Of a stretch of DNA of 64,000 nt, positions 4,100 through 59,398 are shown piece by piece. The stretch comes from Buchnera aphidicola (Meitanaphis flavogallis). Lineage in GTDB: Bacteria; Pseudomonadota; Gammaproteobacteria; Enterobacterales; Enterobacteriaceae. The stretch is taken from positions 193,397-257,396 of the forward strand of contig CP140038.1 in NCBI GenBank assembly GCA_039830035.1, given 5' to 3'. Both the position numbers and the translations under genes were made by a program. Every line of letters begins with the position of its first letter. The stretch's first letter is position 1. The notes beneath the pieces are model-generated. The model was not told the DNA's origin, did not search any database, and saw nothing but the letters and a program-made list of their open reading frames with translations.

Positions 4100-4767
4100 A
4101 TGAGTAATTGTATCATGAATTGGAAAGATGTATTAAAAGAAGAAAAAAAAAATTATATTTTATTAGTATTATTAAAAATCTTGCTAATATCAGACAAACT
4201 AAAATAGTATATCCTCCTAAACATGAGGTATTTAATGCTTTTTCATTAACAAATTTTTCTAATATAAAAGTAGTTATTATTGGTCAAGATCCATATTTTA
4301 AAAAAGGTCAAGCGAATGGATTAGCGTTTTCTGTGCAAAAAAATGTTAAAATTCCTCCCTCTTTAGTTAACATACGAAAAGAATTAGTTAATGATATAGG
4401 TAAAAATTTTTTATTTCAAAGTGGATGTCTTAAAAATTGGGCTCGTCAAGGTGTATTTTTATTAAATTCTGTTTTAACAGTAGAATCAAATAAACCCGGT
4501 TCTCATTTTAAATTAGGATGGGAAAATTTTACTAATAAAGTTATAAAAATTATTAGCGATTATCATACAGGAGTTATTTTTTTGTTATGGGGATCATATG
4601 CTAAAAAAAAAATAGCACATATTTGTATTCGCAAACATCATATTTTATTGGCATCGCATCCATCACCGTTATCATCTTATCACGGTTTTTTTGGATGCCG
4701 CCATTTTTCAAAGACAAATTTTTTATTAAAAAAACAGAATAAAACTCCAATTAATTGGTTTATATGA
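4100..4767 (+). CDS. ung: Uracil-DNA glycosylase, with the frame broken at an A10 tract near the 5' end
   Basis: The track ORF 4108-4767 carries GQDPYFKKGQANGLAFSV and HPSPLS motifs. The conserved Ung N-terminus (MSNCIMNWKDVLKEEKK, compare E. coli MANELTWHDVLAEEKQ) is in a different frame, starting at ATG 4100. The two frames meet at A10 (4143-4152). Confidence 0.85.
4143..4152 (+). repeat. A10 homopolymer at the ung frameshift site
   Basis: Counted directly: gaag + 10 a + ttatat. One extra A (or two fewer) joins the frames to read EEKKKLYFISII. Confidence 0.9.
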
Positions 4768-6587: not shown

Positions 6588-6944
6588 TGGAGCTGGCGGG
6601 ATTCGAACCCGCGTCCAAAATTTTTACGACTTCAGTACTACATGCTTAGTCTATTATATTTAATTAATCTATAAACGTATAGACACATTATAAATTTTTT
6701 CTTATTATATTTTTTTTTAACGACTAAAATTTATAAGTATAATTTTAATACGCGATCTCTTATTTTTTGATCCTGTTTTCTTTTTAAGAGAAAAAAGAAT
6801 CAGGAAGCTTTAGTTTAACTTATTAAGCTGCTAAAGCGTAGTTGTTATTTTTTGCTACTATATTTTACGGCTTTTATCGAGGCAAACCGTTCCTCGGCAT
6901 GCACTTTAGTTTTCAATAATTTTGTCGAATCCAAAATCAGCCCC
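6588..6944 (-). ncRNA. ssrA: tmRNA (SsrA), one-piece
   Basis: The minus-strand 5' end is GGGGCTGATTTTGGATTCGAC...GTGCATGCCGAGG. The 3' end is GGACGCGGGTTCGAATCCCGCCAGCTCCA. The tag reading frame GCA AAA AAT AAC AAC TAC GCT TTA GCA GCT TAA TAA encodes AKNNNYALAA. Confidence 0.95.
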
Positions 6945-35586: not shown

Positions 35587-36306
35587 TTATTTCCATGCTA
35601 TTGCTATACCTGATTCATATCGTAAATCGATGTATTTTATTTTTTTTCTTTTGATTTTTTCTTCATATTTTAAAGTTTTCCAAATCATCATTAATTTTTT
35701 TAATTGAATAATATTATTTATTTTTCCTAGAGCTATTTCAATGTTGTTTTCAATTAATAGTTTCCATGAATGATAAGGTGTTATCGTAATAGATCTCAAT
35801 ATAACGTTATTTTTATTTAGTACATTTTTTATTTTTTCGTAATTTTTTAAAATTTCTTTTTCGCTATTTTTTGGTCCATAAAAATATGGAATGTTTTTAA
35901 TACTTTGTTTTTTTTTTATAATATGAGATATAATTTCTTTTTTATCTAATATATATTTGTCGTTCCAATATGCTACAGGAATAGTATTTACAATATGGAT
36001 TAGTAATGTATCTGGCCATTGTTTTTGAATTTTAATTTTTTTTATAAAAGTGAATTCTTTTAATTTATTTTTTATAAAAAAATTACATGGGAAAAAAAAA
36101 TTACATGAAGTTTTTAAGGATAAAATAAAATCTTTCATTTCTTTTCTATTTAAATAACTAAATTGTCCTGAAATTATAAAATGAGATAATTTTTTTTTAT
36201 ACCATTGTTTAGATAATTTTATAATTATGAGACTATTAAGTATTATAAAAACAATTAAAGATAATATTATAGTATATCTTAATAAGACTAGTTTTTTTTT
36301 TGACAT
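35587..36306 (-). CDS. ftsQ: Cell division protein FtsQ
   Basis: 239 aa ORF with an N-terminal transmembrane helix and a POTRA region. QKQWPDTLLIHIVNTIPVAYWND aligns with E. coli [20 protein letters not shown]. Its position between ddlB and ftsA also fits. Confidence 0.85.
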   Translation of the reverse strand: MSKKKLVLLRYTIILSLIVFIILNSLIIIKLSKQWYKKKLSHFIISGQFSYLNRKEMKDFILSLKTSCNFFFPCNFFIKNKLKEFTFIKKIKIQKQWPDTLLIHIVNTIPVAYWNDKYILDKKEIISHIIKKKQSIKNIPYFYGPKNSEKEILKNYEKIKNVLNKNNVILRSITITPYHSWKLLIENNIEIALGKINNIIQLKKLMMIWKTLKYEEKIKRKKIKYIDLRYESGIAIAWK

Positions 36307-42362: not shown

Positions 42363-43442
42363 CTAATTGACCTTAAATATGAAAGAACATCCTAGCAACA
42401 TAAACACTAAAGATATAATCCAAAATCTTACTGCTATTTTTGGTTCTGGGCAACCTTTTAATTCGTAGTGATGATGAATAGGTGTCATTTTGAATATTCT
42501 TTTTTTCTTTAACTTAAAGTATGTAACTTGAATTATGACTGATATAGTTTCAAATATAAAAATTCCACTCATAATAAAAAATATTATTTCTTGGTGTAGT
42601 AGTATTGCTATTATTCCTATCACCCCTCCTAAAGGTAGAGACCCTACATCACCCATAAATATTTGTGCTGGATAGGCATTAAACCATAAAAATCCTAATC
42701 CTGATCCTATAACGGCTGAGCAAAGAATAGTTAATTCTGCAATACTAGGAATATATACAATATTAAAATGTGTTGAATGGTGTAAATTTCCAGAAATAAA
42801 TGATAGTAGATATAATCCTATAGTTATTAAGATGACAGGAACAATAGCTAACCCATCTAATCCGTCTGTTAAATTTACAGCGTTACTAAAACCTATCAAG
42901 ATAATATATGACAAAAATATATGTATTATACCTATGTTTATAACAATATTTTTTTGGATAGGGCATATTAATTGAATTATAAAATTGTTTTTATTGTTAT
43001 AATAAATTAAAATAATAACAAGAATAGTAATTATAGATAAAAAAAATAATTTCCATTGAGGTCGTAAACCTGTAGACGTGTTAAAGTAAATTTTTTTATA
43101 ATCATCTATGAATCCTACTATGCCAAATCCTATTAAAATCATTAGTGCATACCATATGTATATGTTTGATAAATTAGACCATAATAAAGTAGATATAATG
43201 ATAGAAGATAATATAAGTATTCCTCCCATAGTAGGTGTATATTTTTTGTTAATATGTATTTTAGGTCCATTACTTCGAATAGTTTGATACATTTGGTGTT
43301 TTTTTAAAAATTTGATTAGGTATGATCCTACTATTAGAGAAAAAAATAGTGACGTTAGTAAACTAATAATAGAACGATAAATTAAATATGATGTCTTATC
43401 AAAATTTGTGTGAAAATAGTATTTAATAATGAATTCAATCAT
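42363..43442 (-). CDS. mraY: Phospho-N-acetylmuramoyl-pentapeptide transferase
   Basis: MIEFIIKYY...TPTMGGILIL...NAVNLTDGLDGLA...GDVGSLPLGG motifs. ATG 43442 has GAGGAA 8 nt upstream. The track starts at TTG 43457. Confidence 0.94.
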   Translation of the reverse strand: MIEFIIKYYFHTNFDKTSYLIYRSIISLLTSLFFSLIVGSYLIKFLKKHQMYQTIRSNGPKIHINKKYTPTMGGILILSSIIISTLLWSNLSNIYIWYALMILIGFGIVGFIDDYKKIYFNTSTGLRPQWKLFFLSIITILVIILIYYNNKNNFIIQLICPIQKNIVINIGIIHIFLSYIILIGFSNAVNLTDGLDGLAIVPVILITIGLYLLSFISGNLHHSTHFNIVYIPSIAELTILCSAVIGSGLGFLWFNAYPAQIFMGDVGSLPLGGVIGIIAILLHQEIIFFIMSGIFIFETISVIIQVTYFKLKKKRIFKMTPIHHHYELKGCPEPKIAVRFWIISLVFMLLGCSFIFKVN

Positions 43443-44811
43443 AATTACATTCCTCAACTAATTTTTTTACTATTCTTTCTAGATTTTCGCTTCTAGATCC
43501 TTTAATTAAAATTGTAATTTTTTCATACATAAAAATTTTTTTAGTTAAATCTTTAATTAGTGTATTAATATTAGTGTAATGGTTTCCTTTTTTACTATTA
43601 ATACTGATAGATTTACTTAATTTTCCAATGCTCATAACTTCGTTTATATCAGATATGTAAATGACATTACCAATTATTTTATGATACATAGTACTCATTT
43701 TTCCTAATTCAGACATATCACCAGATACAAAAATTTTATATCCAGGCATGTTTTCTAACACTTTAATTGCTACAATCATTGATGCAACATTAGCATTGTA
43801 AGTATCGTTTATAATAGTTTTATGTTGGCTTAGTGTGATAGTTTCTAATCTACCTGAAAGTATTGGAATTTTAGATAATCCGAGTTGAATGCATTGAAGT
43901 GGAATGTTTAATGTTATTGCTATAGCGGCTGCAGCTAGAGCATTAGAAATATTGTGAAATCCAAGCAAAGGCAAATTAACATTTATAACTCCATTCGGAG
44001 AATGTAGAATGAAGGATGAGCCTGTATTATCAATAACGATATTGCTTGCAAAGAATTGACTTTTTTTTTTTATTGAAAACCAAATAATGTTTTGGCTGTT
44101 TATGTTTTTTTTCCATCTTGACCAATGATGACTATCAGCATTAAATATAGCTGTACCAGTTTTAGGTAATGTACAAAGAATTTCTTGTTTTGATTTAGAG
44201 ATTCCTAATAAAGATTTAAATCCATCTAAATGCGAATAATAAATGTTGTTTATTAATGCAATATTAGGATTTGTTAATTTTGTTGCATATAAAATTTCTT
44301 TAGGATGATTAGCTCCTATTTCAATAACAGCATATTTATATGATAGATCAAGATTTAGTAGAGTTAATGGTACTCCAATATTATTGTTAAAATTTTTAAA
44401 GGTAGATAAAGTTTTTCCATAACATTGCAAGATAGAAGTAGTAATTTCTTTTACAGATGTTTTTCCAGAAGATCCAGTTAATGCTATAATACTAGCATTA
44501 CTTTGTTGTCTAATCCAAAATGCTATATTTCCTAGTGCTAAAGTAGTATTTTGCACAACTATTTGTGGTAGCTTGATATCAAGTTTTTTTTCTAATACTA
44601 CTGCTGTAGCTCCTTTTTTCATTGCTGCATAAACGAAATTATGTGCATCGAAATTTTTTCCGATCAAAGCAATAAATAAACATCCTGGAGTAATTGTTCT
44701 TGAATCAGTACTTATAGCATGAAAAATTAAGTTATTTATTTTTACATTATTTTTGTTAAAAAAATAACCTTTTGTGATACGACATATTTGATAAAAAGAT
44801 ATTGGGATCAT
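43435..44811 (-). CDS. murF: UDP-N-acetylmuramoyl-tripeptide--D-alanyl-D-alanine ligase
   Basis: 458 aa ORF with the ALTGSSGKTSVKE P-loop. It is Mur-ligase colinear and contains an in-frame A11 tract (44061-44071). Confidence 0.93.
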   Translation of the reverse strand: MIPISFYQICRITKGYFFNKNNVKINNLIFHAISTDSRTITPGCLFIALIGKNFDAHNFVYAAMKKGATAVVLEKKLDIKLPQIVVQNTTLALGNIAFWIRQQSNASIIALTGSSGKTSVKEITTSILQCYGKTLSTFKNFNNNIGVPLTLLNLDLSYKYAVIEIGANHPKEILYATKLTNPNIALINNIYYSHLDGFKSLLGISKSKQEILCTLPKTGTAIFNADSHHWSRWKKNINSQNIIWFSIKKKSQFFASNIVIDNTGSSFILHSPNGVINVNLPLLGFHNISNALAAAAIAITLNIPLQCIQLGLSKIPILSGRLETITLSQHKTIINDTYNANVASMIVAIKVLENMPGYKIFVSGDMSELGKMSTMYHKIIGNVIYISDINEVMSIGKLSKSISINSKKGNHYTNINTLIKDLTKKIFMYEKITILIKGSRSENLERIVKKLVEECNYD

Positions 44812-44813
44812 AT

Positions 44814-46297
44814 TTATTTTTCCAATAGTTTTTTAATTGTTTCATAGTCAGAAAAATAATAAGTTTTATTTTTTATTATTTGATATTTTTCATGACCTTT
44901 TCCTAATACAACTACACAGTCATTGATGTTAGCATTCATTATGGCAAATTTGATTGCTTGTTTTCGATCCAATATAATATGTATATTTTTTTTATTTTGA
45001 ATGTTTTGTGTGATATCTTTTATAATTTCTTTTGGATTCTCGTTTCTGGGATTGTCATTAGTTAGAACGATTTTATTAGCAATTTTTTCAGAAATCTTTC
45101 CCATTAGGGATCTCTTTAATTTGTCTCTATTTCCTCCGCATCCAAATACACACCATACATTGTGATGATATATTTTACGAATAGTTTGTAATACATTTTT
45201 AAAAGCGTCTTCATTATGTGCATAATCAATGATAATGTTTGGTTTATTTGGAATTTTAAGAGATTGCATTCTTCCAGGAACGGCTATTATATATTCGCAT
45301 ACGTCTATCAAGCAAGATAGTGAAAACCCCAAGTTTAATAATGCCACTAAAGCTAGTAGTAAATTAGTAACGTTAAAGTTTCCAATTAATTGGCTTTTTA
45401 ACAATCCTTTTCCCCAACTAGATTTAAAGTAAATGTAAGTATAATTTGTATTATATATTATACGATATGCGTGTACCCATCGTTTAAATAATGAGTAATT
45501 AAAATTTTTATTTATACTTACGACGATAGTTCTTTTTTTAGATAATTTTTTTGTCCATAGTTTTCCAATATGATTATCTATATTAATTATGAATGTTTTA
45601 ATTTTGTTTTTAGAAAAAAAAGTCCATTTTGCTTTAATATAGTTTTCTATAGTTTTGTGATAGTCTAAGTGGTCTGATGTAATGTTTGTCAAAATTGCCA
45701 TAGAAAAATTTAAATTTGACACTCTATGTTGTATGATTCCATGCGAAGATATTTCCATAGCAATTGTTTTTATATCGTTTATTAACATTTCTTTTAAGAA
45801 TTTTTGTATATTTATAGGAGAATCAGTTGTATTTACAGATGGTTTTAGATCGTTGTAAGTTCCATTCCCTAGACTTCCCATAATTCCTATTCTTTGGTTT
45901 AATAAGTAATTCCATTGAGCAATAATATGAGTCACAGTACTTTTTCCATTAGTTCCAGTGACTCCAATAAGTGTTAATTCTTCATTTACTTCATAATATC
46001 TATTGGATATTTTGGATAAATTTTTAGATAATTTTAAAAAATAAATTACTGGAATGTGTTTATTTTTATATGTTATATGTCCATGATATTCTTTTTTTTT
46101 GTTTCGCAAAGAATAGCTATTGCTCCATTATCAATAGCTTTTTTTATAAATTGTCGTCCATGAAATATATTTCCTTGTAGTGCGCAGAATAAGTTTCCTG
46201 TAGTAACTTTTCGACTATCTGATGCTATTCCAGTTATATTATATGATTGTGTTATATTCATCCAAGGTTGTAATAGGGTTTGTAGGTTATGTTTCAT
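44814..46297 (-). pseudogene. murE: UDP-N-acetylmuramoyl-L-alanyl-D-glutamate--2,6-diaminopimelate ligase, split by a frameshift at an A9 tract (possibly rescued by slippage)
   Basis: Two track ORFs (46073-46297 and 44814-46109) overlap by 37 nt in different frames. The first, MKHNLQTLLQPWM...IASDSRKVTTGNLFCALQG...AIAILCETKKK, matches the MurE N-terminus. The second carries GVTGTNGKST, DNPRNE and the rest. The break is at A9 (46092-46100). Confidence 0.9.
46092..46100 (-). repeat. A9 (sense-strand) homopolymer at the murE frameshift site
   Basis: Nine T on the plus strand between c46091 and g46101. One extra A gives ETKKKEYHGHITYKNKHIPVIYF. Confidence 0.9.
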
Positions 46298-47729
46298 TTT
46301 TACTCCAAAATTTTGTGATGTATTTAATATATAAATAAATTATCAGGTTGAATATTAATAATTTTTAATGCAAAACTCATAATTGTACTAAATACTGGAG
46401 CTGAAATAGTTCCTCCATAGTATTGTCCTGCTCGTGGATCATTAATCATCACAAGCAAAGAAAATTGTGGATTGCTAATTGGAGCAAGTCCTACTGCATA
46501 TGATACGTATCTATTTACGTATTTTCCGTTTGAATTGACTTTTTTTGCAGTACCCGTCTTTACAGCAACTTTATAGCCTTTAATGGCTGCTTTTACTCCT
46601 ACGCCTCCTGGCTGAGTTACTGATTCGAGCATGTTTAATACGATTTTTACTAAAGATTTTGAAAATATTCGTTTTTCGTTGTTTTTGTTATTAGTTTTAA
46701 TAATAGATAATGGTTTGTATAATCCATATCTACCCATAATTGTGTATACGTTAACCAATTGTAGTGGTGTAACCATCAATCCATATCCAAAAGAAAATGT
46801 TACTTTATCTAAGTTAGACCAATGTTTTTTTTTGGGGTAAATTCCTTTTTTTTCTCCTATCAATCCTGAATTTGTCGATTTTCCTAAGCCAAATCTAGAA
46901 TAAATATCAATTAATTCAGATTCTGACATAGATAGTGCTATTTTAGATACACCTGTATTGCTTGATTTTTTCAAAATATCGGTAACTGATAATTGTCTGT
47001 TATATGAAACATCTTTTATTACGTGTTTATCTATTATAAAAGGTGTTGTGTCAATAATAGATTTTGGAGTTATTATTTTTTTTTGCAATGCTTTCATAAT
47101 TACCATTGGTTTAACTGTTGATCCAGGCTCAAATACGTCAGTCACGGCTCTGTTACGAATTAAATCCATAGATACTTTTTTTAAATTATTTGGATTATAT
47201 GTAGGGCTATTGACCATAGCTAGGATTTCTCCAGTTTTAATATTTGTTAAAATAGCCGTTCCAGATTGAGCTTTATGAAAACTAACAGCATGACTTAATT
47301 CGCGATATATAATCGTTTGTAATCTTATGTCTATACTAAGATTTATATTGCGTGGCGCATTTTTTTTAATTAATGAAACATTTTCAATAATGTTTCCAAA
47401 CTTGTCGGTTCTAATTTTTCTTTTACCTGGAGCTCCTTGAAGTATTTTGTTAAAACTCTTTTCTATTCCTTCGATGCCTATTCCATCTGTGTTGGTGAAT
47501 CCAATTAATTGCGAAACTATTTTTCCAGAAGGGTAGTATCGCTTAAAATCTTCAACAATATATACACCTGGTAAGTTTAATTTTTTTATGTATTCTCCAA
47601 TTTCTGGACTAACTTTTCGTGCTAGATATGTAAAACGATTGTTTTTAAAATGATTAATTTTATATATAATTTTTTCTAGAGGAGTGGATAGTACTTTCGA
47701 TAATGCTTTCCACTTTGCATTTATAACTA

Positions 47730-47739
47730 TTTTTTTTTT
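47730..47739 (-). repeat. A10 (sense-strand) homopolymer at the second ftsI frameshift site
   Basis: Ten T on the plus strand. As written, the middle frame ends ...TCA AAA AAA AAA TAG. One extra A continues as ATA GTT ATA AAT GCA AAG TGG. Confidence 0.9.
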
Positions 47740-47988
47740 GAAAAAAATATTTTTGGATCAATACAAATGTTATTCGTAGGTATACTTAGAGCTAATATAT
47801 TTCCTGATCTATCCTTAATAGTTCCTCTTGAATTTGTTTCTACTTGTATTCTTGATGATCTTAAATCACTTTCTTTAATTAGTTGCTTAGTTTTAAATAA
47901 TTGTAATATAGTTATTTTAAGTAAAATTATGATGATAGAAATAGTAATTATACTAAGTAGTGTGATAAGTCGATGATTGAAATAACAG

Positions 47989-47998
47989 TTTTTTTTTT
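47989..47998 (-). repeat. A10 (sense-strand) homopolymer at the first ftsI frameshift site
   Basis: Ten T on the plus strand. The start frame reads CTA AAA AAA AAA CTG and stops 12 codons later. One fewer A reads LKKNCYFNHRLITLL, which includes the transmembrane helix. Confidence 0.9.
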
Positions 47999-48066
47999 AG
48001 ATAACTAAATGGAATGTTGTTGAAAAAATATTTCATGAATTTGTAAATTTCCTATTGTTTCAGTAA

Positions 48067-58666: not shown

Positions 58667-59398
58667 ATGAAAAAAAAAAATAATAAAGTATTTAAATTTA
58701 AACGTATATTAATAAAATTGAGTGGTGAATCTTTACAAGGTAGTAACAAATTTGGAGTAGATGTAGATGCATTAAATTGTATTATAAAAGAAATAAAAGA
58801 TATTGCGAATTTAGGGATACAAGTAGGTATTGTTGTCGGTGGAGGAAATATATTTCGAGGAAAGAAATTAAAAAATTTTGGTATTAATAAAATTGTTTCT
58901 GATAATGTAGGTATGTTATCTACTATTATTAATGGATTGATATTGTGTGATTCCATGAAAAAAATGAATCTTAATGCGCATTTAATGTCTTCAATTCCAA
59001 TTGGTTCAATATGCGAAATTTATCACTATGAAAAAGCTATAAATTGGTTGAAAAATAGATATGTAGTAATATTTTCTGGAGGTTTAGGAAATCCATGTTT
59101 TACTACAGATTCAGCAGCTTGTTTACGAGCAATAGAAATAAAAGCTGATATTATTTTAAAAGGCACTAAAGTTAACGGAGTATATTCTAGTGATCCAAAA
59201 AAAAATATTAATCCGGTATTATATAAAACAATAACCTATGATGAAGCATTAACTAAAGAATTGCAAGTTATGGATTTATCTGCTTTTATATTAGCTCGAG
59301 ATCACAAATTGCCAATTTGTATTTTTAATATATATAATCCAGGGATTTTACGCCGGATTGTACAAGGTAAACGAGAAGGAACGTTGATTAAATTTTAG
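58667..59398 (+). CDS. pyrH: UMP kinase
   Basis: 243 aa ORF with RILIKLSGESL and GGGNIFRG motifs. Codons 2-5 are an in-frame A11 tract. Confidence 0.95.
   Translation: MKKKNNKVFKFKRILIKLSGESLQGSNKFGVDVDALNCIIKEIKDIANLGIQVGIVVGGGNIFRGKKLKNFGINKIVSDNVGMLSTIINGLILCDSMKKMNLNAHLMSSIPIGSICEIYHYEKAINWLKNRYVVIFSGGLGNPCFTTDSAACLRAIEIKADIILKGTKVNGVYSSDPKKNINPVLYKTITYDEALTKELQVMDLSAFILARDHKLPICIFNIYNPGILRRIVQGKREGTLIKF

Follow-up and report, generated by a model that had tools for sequence, protein, structure and literature searches.

Two opposite-sign homopolymer frameshifts in a constrained ftsI gene of Buchnera from Meitanaphis flavogallis and its relatives

The ftsI locus and its repaired product

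The window analysed here is a 64-kb stretch (26.4% GC) of the genome of Buchnera aphidicola of Meitanaphis flavogallis (CP140038). Its ftsI gene, for penicillin-binding protein 3 (PBP3), lies between ftsL and murE on the minus strand (46324..48036) and carries two frameshifts; its length, 1713 nt, is a multiple of three. The gene order rsmH-ftsL-ftsI-murE-murF-mraY is the same in the window and in all related loci, and places ftsI in the division and cell wall (dcw) cluster, as expected for this gene. An earlier note on this DNA had described three colinear segments separated by two frameshifts of opposite sign, each on a tract of ten A residues (A10), with the rest of the gene intact, and both the reading frames and the repaired product agree with that description. 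We found that the frameshifts are genuine and shared between lineages, and that constraint on ftsI is comparable to that on its intact neighbours.

All features of the gene are read here on its own, minus, strand. Segment 1 (47999..48036) comprises the ATG and codons 1-13, MKYFFNNIPFSYL, in the start-codon frame. A putative Shine-Dalgarno (SD)-like sequence, AGGAAA (48048..48053), was recognized by direct reading 11 nt 5' of this ATG, where it may serve initiation; an ATAGGAA motif is also found 5' of the ftsI ATG in related loci. Tract 1, a sense-strand A10 (47989-47998, gene nt 39-48), follows, and a length of A9 or A12 would restore the frame. Without correction the ATG frame reads MKYFFNNIPFSYLKKK and is closed after 27 codons by a TAG at 47953-47955. 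Segment 2 (47740..47988, ∼83 codons) is encoded in frame +1, which is open only over nt 41-307 (89 codons), 3' of a TAA built from a T and the first two A's of tract 1. It contains the cytoplasmic end of the protein, a putative transmembrane helix and the start of the PBP_dimer domain. The helix, LITLLSIITISIIIILL (47919-47969), is a hydrophobic stretch preceded by Arg and conserved in relatives, as befits the single N-terminal membrane anchor of FtsI. Inspection of the segment 2 open reading frame (ORF) revealed no ATG, GTG or TTG start in frame +1 ahead of the helix.

Tract 2, the second sense-strand A10 (47730-47739, gene nt 298-307), needs A11 or A8 to restore the frame. It is abutted by a T7 run (47741-47747; T8 in most relatives, T10C in Schlechtendalia peitan), and a TAG closing frame +1 stands immediately 3' of it (47727-47729). 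The slippery region at this junction is thus a composite T7-8/A10, and a correcting +1 event could in principle fall on the T run. Segment 3 (46324..47729) comprises the remaining 468 codons and the stop, back in the ATG frame, and encodes the transpeptidase domain together with the remainder of PBP_dimer; counted from nt 280, the reopened ATG frame runs for 477 codons up to the stop. Hence, the first frame switch is confined to nt 41-81 (nt 41-63 in Kaburagia) and the second to nt 280-307. These switch windows of 23-41 nt and 28 nt each contain an A10 run, and there is no further stop or indel. A/T homopolymers of such length are few: the window holds eight runs of exactly 10 and two of 11, and three of the eight A10 runs are frameshift sites.

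With A9 (or A12) at tract 1 and A11 (or A8) at tract 2, the gene encodes a single 570-aa protein. The earlier note had proposed just these corrections (one A fewer or two more, then one more or two fewer), and the full-length product indeed passes the family cut-off for FtsI: the A9+A11 version matches NCBIfam NF011685 as a single stretch over both junctions (754.1 bits, cut-off 737; residues 17-567 versus profile positions 18-568). Pfam domains in the repaired product are PBP_dimer (PF03717, residues 69-220), which crosses junction 2, and Transpeptidase (PF00905, residues 259-553). Alignment to E. coli FtsI/PBP3 (7onw) is gap-free across junction 2 (residues 50-567 versus 27-544). The catalytic motifs reported to be preserved, STVK (SxxK, 47110-47121), SSN (SxN, 46957-46965) and KTGTA (KTG, 46546-46560), are all present and align to those of the E. 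coli protein. By these matches the repaired product is FtsI (PBP3), a class B penicillin-binding protein and predicted septal transpeptidase.

The closest proteins to the repaired product are FtsI of Buchnera aphidicola from Rhus-gall aphids (Melaphidina). A scan of GTDB-representative contigs with the repaired protein found just a Sipalinus symbiont and a Dependentiae bin, both distantly related; the genome of the window is not among the GTDB representatives. Metagenome contigs scanned with a degenerate ftsI pattern gave no match. If initiated at ATG 48036, the protein would begin with MKYFFNNIPFSYLKK. Predicted diagnostic peptides are LKKNCYFNHR for A9 and LKKKNCYFNHR for A12 at tract 1, IFFSKKKIVINAK, and the N-terminal MKYFFNNIPFSYLK, which discriminates internal initiation. 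The junction peptides suggested previously, LKKNCYFNHR and SKKKIVINAK, are the right ones for the A9 and A11 products.

Conservation of the frameshifts and selection on the gene

We compared the window with related loci from Kaburagia rhusicola rhusicola, K. r. ensigallis, Floraphis choui, S. peitan, Nurudea yanoniella (two samples) and N. shiraii (plus three Logan runs, L008-L010), with a close relative in the Logan assembly of SRR32023170 (L003) and a relative from a JGI metagenome, and with the Buchnera of Baizongia pistaciae as an outgroup. The window, L003 and both Kaburagia symbionts share the A10/A10 configuration, a 1713-nt ftsI and zero indels. The two Kaburagia sequences differ by just 4 ftsI substitutions. 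The three deeper double-frameshift lineages are separated from each other by 85-109 substitutions, at a synonymous divergence (dS) of 0.19-0.26. Therefore, the double frameshift is older than the divergence of these lineages.

The same comparison bears on the possibility that the frameshifts are sequencing or assembly artefacts and that the true gene has A9 (or A12) and A11. Homopolymers of 10 are the most error-prone contexts, and both 'errors' could be read as A12 and A11 compressed to A10. However, the lengths are equal in four independent samples assembled from Illumina data by two pipelines. Moreover, lengths in this genome are not forced to 10, as the window contains an in-frame A11 in murF (44061-44071) besides in-frame A10 runs in a probable ftsQ, and A10 versus A11 at tract 2 is reproducible within species (A10 in four assemblies of N. 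shiraii, A11 in two samples of N. yanoniella). We thus consider an artefact, one of the options raised in the earlier note, very unlikely. The NCBI genomes of the clade were obtained by Illumina NextSeq sequencing (2 x 150) and SPAdes assembly (PMC11188193); the paper describing them does not mention ftsI, pseudogenes or frameshifts.

Across the three double-frameshift lineages the ratio of non-synonymous to synonymous substitution rates (dN/dS) for ftsI as a whole is 0.068-0.090 (P-value 1e–29 to 1e–32). Comparisons involving the window yield 79-81 synonymous versus 27-30 non-synonymous changes (79 and 30 against L003). Both long segments contribute, with dN/dS of 0.055-0.155 for segment 2 (P-value 3e–4 to 4e–8) and 0.072-0.082 for segment 3 (P-value 1e–22 to 1e–26). 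Segments 2 and 3 have therefore been under purifying selection in their FtsI frames since the frameshifts. Read in the wrong frame, segment 3 gives 1.5-1.7 and the shorter segment 2 gives 0.45-0.54, with no significant synonymous excess in either. For the intact neighbours the values are 0.07 (ilvH), 0.10-0.14 (ftsL), 0.17-0.19 (rsmH) and 0.19-0.20 (mraY), and for the window ftsI against every relative they are 0.09-0.19. In a neutral simulation with the observed substitution spectrum, the three segments all stayed stop-free in 1.9% of trials. A CGA>AGA change in Kaburagia is synonymous (Arg) in frame +1, yet makes a TAG at codon 22 of the ATG frame. Being synonymous only in frame +1, it identifies the frame in use and limits the first shift to nt 41-63. 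Segment 1 differs from L003 at one of its 38 nt, a length too short for testing constraint where spacers differ by 3-11%.

These values leave little room for a true pseudogene heading for loss, which we regard as scarcely credible. The two frameshifts themselves would suit a pseudogene, as would the interruption of the dcw neighbour murE (and of murF and mraY in relatives) and an NCBI annotation that retains only a 297-aa fragment. Against this stand a dN/dS of 0.07-0.09 in the frameshifted state over a dS of ∼0.2-0.26, intact motifs throughout, and zero indels and stops in four genomes, a pattern that differs from that of a decaying gene. A very recent double inactivation, another option offered earlier, is rejected: both frameshifts are present in four genomes of three lineages at a dN/dS of ∼0.08. 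We also rejected a classic compensated frameshift pair with a scrambled middle, as segment 2 keeps its FtsI homology and is constrained in its own frame. The comparison with sister strains that the earlier note had advised thus separated its three options, and the one favoured by the comparative data is expression through slippage on poly(A), with slippage itself a deduction from sequence.

The two sites have different histories. At tract 1, the Meitanaphis/Kaburagia clade alone is out of frame; other relatives have A7, A9 or no run there, and are in frame. Tract 2 is A10 at nine of the ten Melaphidina loci and frameshifted at eight of them. It is out of frame in the Meitanaphis/Kaburagia clade, F. 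choui, N. shiraii, L008 and the JGI relative, each with an open continuation of 477-493 codons; the A10 of N. shiraii recurs in four assemblies (one NCBI, three Logan). In both samples of N. yanoniella the site reads T8A11 and is in frame, and in S. peitan junction 2 is in frame by virtue of a longer T run (T10C-A10). In the Baizongia outgroup both sites are free of homopolymers and the gene is in frame. The frame +1 stop following tract 2 is TAG in Meitanaphis/Kaburagia and TAA in Floraphis; N. shiraii and the JGI relative do not share it.

On a neighbour-joining tree, one ancient tract 2 frameshift with two restorations is about as costly as at least three independent frameshifts (∼3 events each). 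Under either parsimony history, the tract 2 site toggles while ftsI stays constrained. We propose that the ancestor of the Rhus-gall-aphid (Melaphidina) Buchnera acquired the A10 at site 2, that most lineages have since carried it out of frame, and that the second frameshift, at site 1, would have arisen in the common ancestor of the Meitanaphis and Kaburagia symbionts.

Correction of the reading frame

Overall, we suggest with moderate confidence that ftsI is a functional PBP3 gene kept by selection, whose frameshifts are corrected phenotypically at both homopolymers, mostly by slippage of RNA polymerase. The functional product would be one fused polypeptide, because PBP_dimer spans junction 2 and only segment 2 has the membrane anchor. 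Since segment 2 lacks its own ATG, GTG or TTG start, making this polypeptide would take a frame change at both homopolymers. RNA polymerase slipping on the A/T runs would generate a mixed pool of mRNAs. A message would encode the full protein of 570-571 aa if it has A9 or A12 in tract 1 together with either A11 in tract 2 or one additional U in the neighbouring U run, and the remaining ones would give short peptides, such as the 27 residues from an uncorrected transcript. If the two slippage events are independent, the yield would be approximately the product of their frequencies; a low yield might be tolerable because FtsI is needed in small amounts. The window also contains a transfer-messenger RNA (tmRNA) gene (6588-6944, minus strand; tag AKNNNYALAA), a background observation in that truncated peptides of uncorrected transcripts would need clearing.

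Published data on related genes are compatible with such slippage. For cell-wall genes of an aphid endosymbiont with a poly(A) frameshift, 12-50% corrected transcripts are quoted from Tamas et al. 2008 in PMC5009743, and PMC3017870 puts the value at ∼30%. In Buchnera, the transcription indel rate climbs exponentially with run length, up to 11 nt (PMC5574713). The ftsI gene has the sequence features that mark this class of homopolymer frameshift: A/T runs of ∼9 nt or longer, an ORF otherwise intact, conservation between lineages and continued purifying selection.

Several points weigh against correction by polymerase slippage. All of the evidence for frame correction comes from selection. At tract 1 the frame is regained by a deletion (–1) or by inserting two residues (+2). 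In Buchnera homopolymers, however, transcription insertions are far commoner than deletions, with 151 of 157 insertions versus 16 of 57 deletions located there in a genome-wide study that saw no frame-restoring transcription error (PMC5574713). E. coli RNA polymerase slips less readily on A than on T runs (PMC6260861). Two events predict a yield of a few percent at best, which is odd beside constraint at the level of the neighbours. Neither tract has returned to an in-frame length in three lineages, where simple rescue should favour reversion. Finally, the 38 nt of segment 1 give too little sequence to establish that translation still begins at ATG 48036.

Correction might instead take place on the ribosome. 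Ribosomes would slide or shift frame on the lysine A runs of a uniform A10/A10 mRNA, by +1 (or –2) at tract 1 and by –1 at tract 2. Both tracts are perfect slippery sequences of the X XXY YYZ type (A AAA AAA), on which tRNA-Lys can re-pair in any frame, and the stop right after tract 2 (TAG in Meitanaphis/Kaburagia, TAA in Floraphis) could slow decoding. 'Corrective' ribosomal frameshifting in organelles and endosymbionts has been discussed (PMC5009743), and the selection evidence is equally compatible with it. However, N. shiraii and the JGI relative do not share the stop adjoining tract 2, and we found no stimulatory elements: the predicted RNA structure 3' of the tracts lies within the range of shuffled sequences and of other runs of at least nine A's (minimum free energy z of –0.7 and –1.7), and no SD-like frameshift stimulator was seen by direct reading upstream of either tract. 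The published experimental precedent in Buchnera is, moreover, transcriptional. Taken together, we view ribosomal correction as unlikely, if worth weighing.

Variation in the DNA itself is another candidate source of in-frame messages. Buchnera is highly polyploid, and a minority of chromosome copies might be in frame through replication slippage and masked by the A10/A10 consensus. The murF run does vary at the DNA level in this clade (A11, A10, A9) and differs between the two Kaburagia symbionts (A10 versus A11) despite their few ftsI substitutions; polymorphic single-base indels within Buchnera samples have also been described (PMC3164680). Nevertheless, a doubly corrected chromosome would require two rare length variants in cis, all four consensus assemblies are A10/A10, and in-frame alleles, if present and beneficial, would be expected to have swept through one or more of the three lineages. 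This source seems quite improbable to us.

We give a similarly small chance to initiation inside the gene, at a non-canonical ATC, ATA or ATT codon in frame +1, 3' of tract 1. Tract 2 would then be the sole site in need of correction, and the first frameshift would have cost only a dispensable N-terminus of 15 residues. Among relatives, the protein is least conserved at its extreme N-terminus, constraint on segment 1 is not demonstrable, and a similar relaxation is seen 5' of the murE frameshift (dN/dS 0.43-1.08). On the other hand, frame +1 offers none of the three usual start codons before the helix and no SD-like sequence there, while AGGAAA and ATG 48036 are retained. Initiation after Arg codon 22 would cost the helix the positive charge that orients it, and initiation at ATH codons is very inefficient.

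Rather than merely being tolerated, the frameshifted state might itself be selected. The serial tracts would then act as a multiplicative attenuator, a tunable valve holding FtsI very low. The failure of either tract to revert in three lineages and a constraint on ftsI equal to that on intact neighbours are compatible with this, as is the concentration of frameshifts in dcw genes both here and in Aphidinae Buchnera; we regard the idea as speculative and rather unlikely. If it were true, slippage tied to polymerase speed and nucleotide triphosphate (NTP) supply could couple symbiont division to host-controlled physiology. It would also extend to the murE, murF and mraY tracts, with poly(A) frameshifts replacing the lost transcriptional regulation of the dcw cluster.

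Known systems, significance and other homopolymer frameshifts

By its sequence features, ftsI falls into a class already known from endosymbionts, in which homopolymeric frameshifts are tolerated or slippage rescues the gene. The closest parallels are the poly(A) frameshifts in Buchnera cell-wall genes and a Blochmannia histidine gene, rescued by transcriptional slippage (Tamas et al. 2008, PNAS 105:14934, as summarized in PMC5009743, PMC3164680 and PMC3017870). These share with ftsI an insect endosymbiont genome of ∼26% GC, a frameshift exactly within a long run of sense-strand A's, an ORF that is intact elsewhere, a place in the cell-envelope (dcw) cluster and an expected rescue by mixed mRNA. 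What sets ftsI apart is the need for two serial, opposite-sign corrections in one gene, the first of which takes a deletion or two inserted residues. The ancient frameshifts of Blochmannia (Wernegreen, Kauppinen & Degnan 2010, Mol Biol Evol 27:833, as summarized in PMC3017870) are likewise conserved between species and free of other decay, with function inferred from conservation. They concern another symbiont and other genes, whereas the doubly frameshifted state of ftsI has a dN/dS of ∼0.08. In the endosymbiont literature only single frameshifts per gene have been treated as potentially functional (PMC3017870).

In Aphidinae Buchnera, murF, murE and mraY have repeatedly acquired homopolymeric frameshifts (Degnan et al. 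2011, PMC3164680); cluster and kind of lesion are the same as for murE in the window and for murF and mraY in its relatives. Those cases were scored as independent inactivations, with regulation considered possible; ftsI was instead tested directly here and is constrained. The tssM gene of Citrobacter rodentium is also an interrupted chromosomal gene rescued by transcriptional frameshifting, but this is a single site in a free-living pathogen with experimental proof (PMC4256274), and the ftsI case is known from sequence.

Programmed ribosomal frameshifting (dnaX, –1 on A AAA AAG; prfB, +1) resembles ftsI in its slippery lysine run and in a product that depends on a frame change. Unlike those cassettes, ftsI lacks a stimulatory SD or RNA structure and has two sites of opposite sign. 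Nor is it conserved as dnaX and prfB cassettes are: Baizongia has no run, N. yanoniella and S. peitan are in frame, and the tract 1 frameshift is limited to one sub-clade. Hence, ftsI stands outside the programmed ribosomal frameshift cassettes. In the searchable literature ftsI is not named as a frameshift gene of the endosymbiont class. What is new relative to that literature is the gene, ftsI, and the retention of two serial opposite-sign corrections over substantial divergence with constraint at the level of the neighbours.

Annotation presents a different picture of the gene. The public record for the window is a 297-aa 'penicillin-binding transpeptidase domain-containing protein' (XBC43506.1) starting at an internal ATG (46324-47217, minus strand), and truncated FtsI records are found across the clade (369 aa in Kaburagia, 455 aa in Floraphis). 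Studies of Buchnera peptidoglycan drop frameshifted coding sequences as pseudogenes (PMC9116674). The rules of PMC9116674, PMC3017870 or NCBI would thus score the septal transpeptidase as lost across the clade despite strong selection on it. Although ftsI depends on two independent corrections, one of them in the less favoured direction, selection holds it as firmly as the intact genes beside it. Either the cell gets by on very little FtsI, or these symbionts slip far more efficiently than genome-wide error measurements suggest. The locus also offers a natural test system. The tracts are 249 nt apart and can be phased on one read, so that the joint frequency and the independence of the two corrections are directly measurable on single reads, and sister taxa supply natural in-frame controls (N. 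yanoniella with A11, and S. peitan).

Other genes of the window and its relatives carry similar lesions. The neighbouring murE (46297..44814, minus strand) is frameshifted at a sense-strand A9 (46092-46100) where A10 is needed, and the same split (74 + ∼430 codons) occurs in L003, both Kaburagia symbionts and F. choui. The part 3' of the tract has a dN/dS of 0.15-0.19, and the upstream 74 codons are not different from neutral; the N-terminal domain of MurE may no longer be joined to the remainder. In murF (44811..43435, minus strand) the run at 44061-44071 is an in-frame A11 in the window and in K. r. ensigallis, a frameshifted A10 in the near-identical K. r. rhusicola and in N. yanoniella, and A9 in N. 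shiraii. Aligned with L003, the window shows a 1-nt indel in this stretch of A's, and the murF of L003 is likewise split. The murF run is thus a very fast-toggling tract in an otherwise open gene. The mraY gene is intact in the window (364 codons) and split at a T9 run in S. peitan and the JGI relative. Together with murE and murF, these splits make dcw-cluster genes the preferred hosts of homopolymer frameshifts in this clade, as in Aphidinae Buchnera (PMC3164680).

Outside the cluster, the uracil-DNA glycosylase gene ung (plus strand, ATG at ∼4100 to 4767) is frameshifted on an A10 at 4143-4152. The reading MSNCIMNWKDVLKEEKK lies in one frame and LYFISIIKNLANIRQTKIVYPPKHEVFNAF goes on in another, and the repaired protein matches Pfam UDG; both stretches presumably resemble E. 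coli Ung. The ORF at 36306..35587 (minus strand), probably ftsQ by position, contains two in-frame sense-strand A10 runs (35908-35917 and 36292-36301), one of them right after the start (ATG TCA AAA AAA AAA). These runs serve as internal controls and are potential future frameshift sites. In the ORF at 58667..59398 (plus strand), an A11 (58670-58680) directly follows the ATG and is in frame as assembled.

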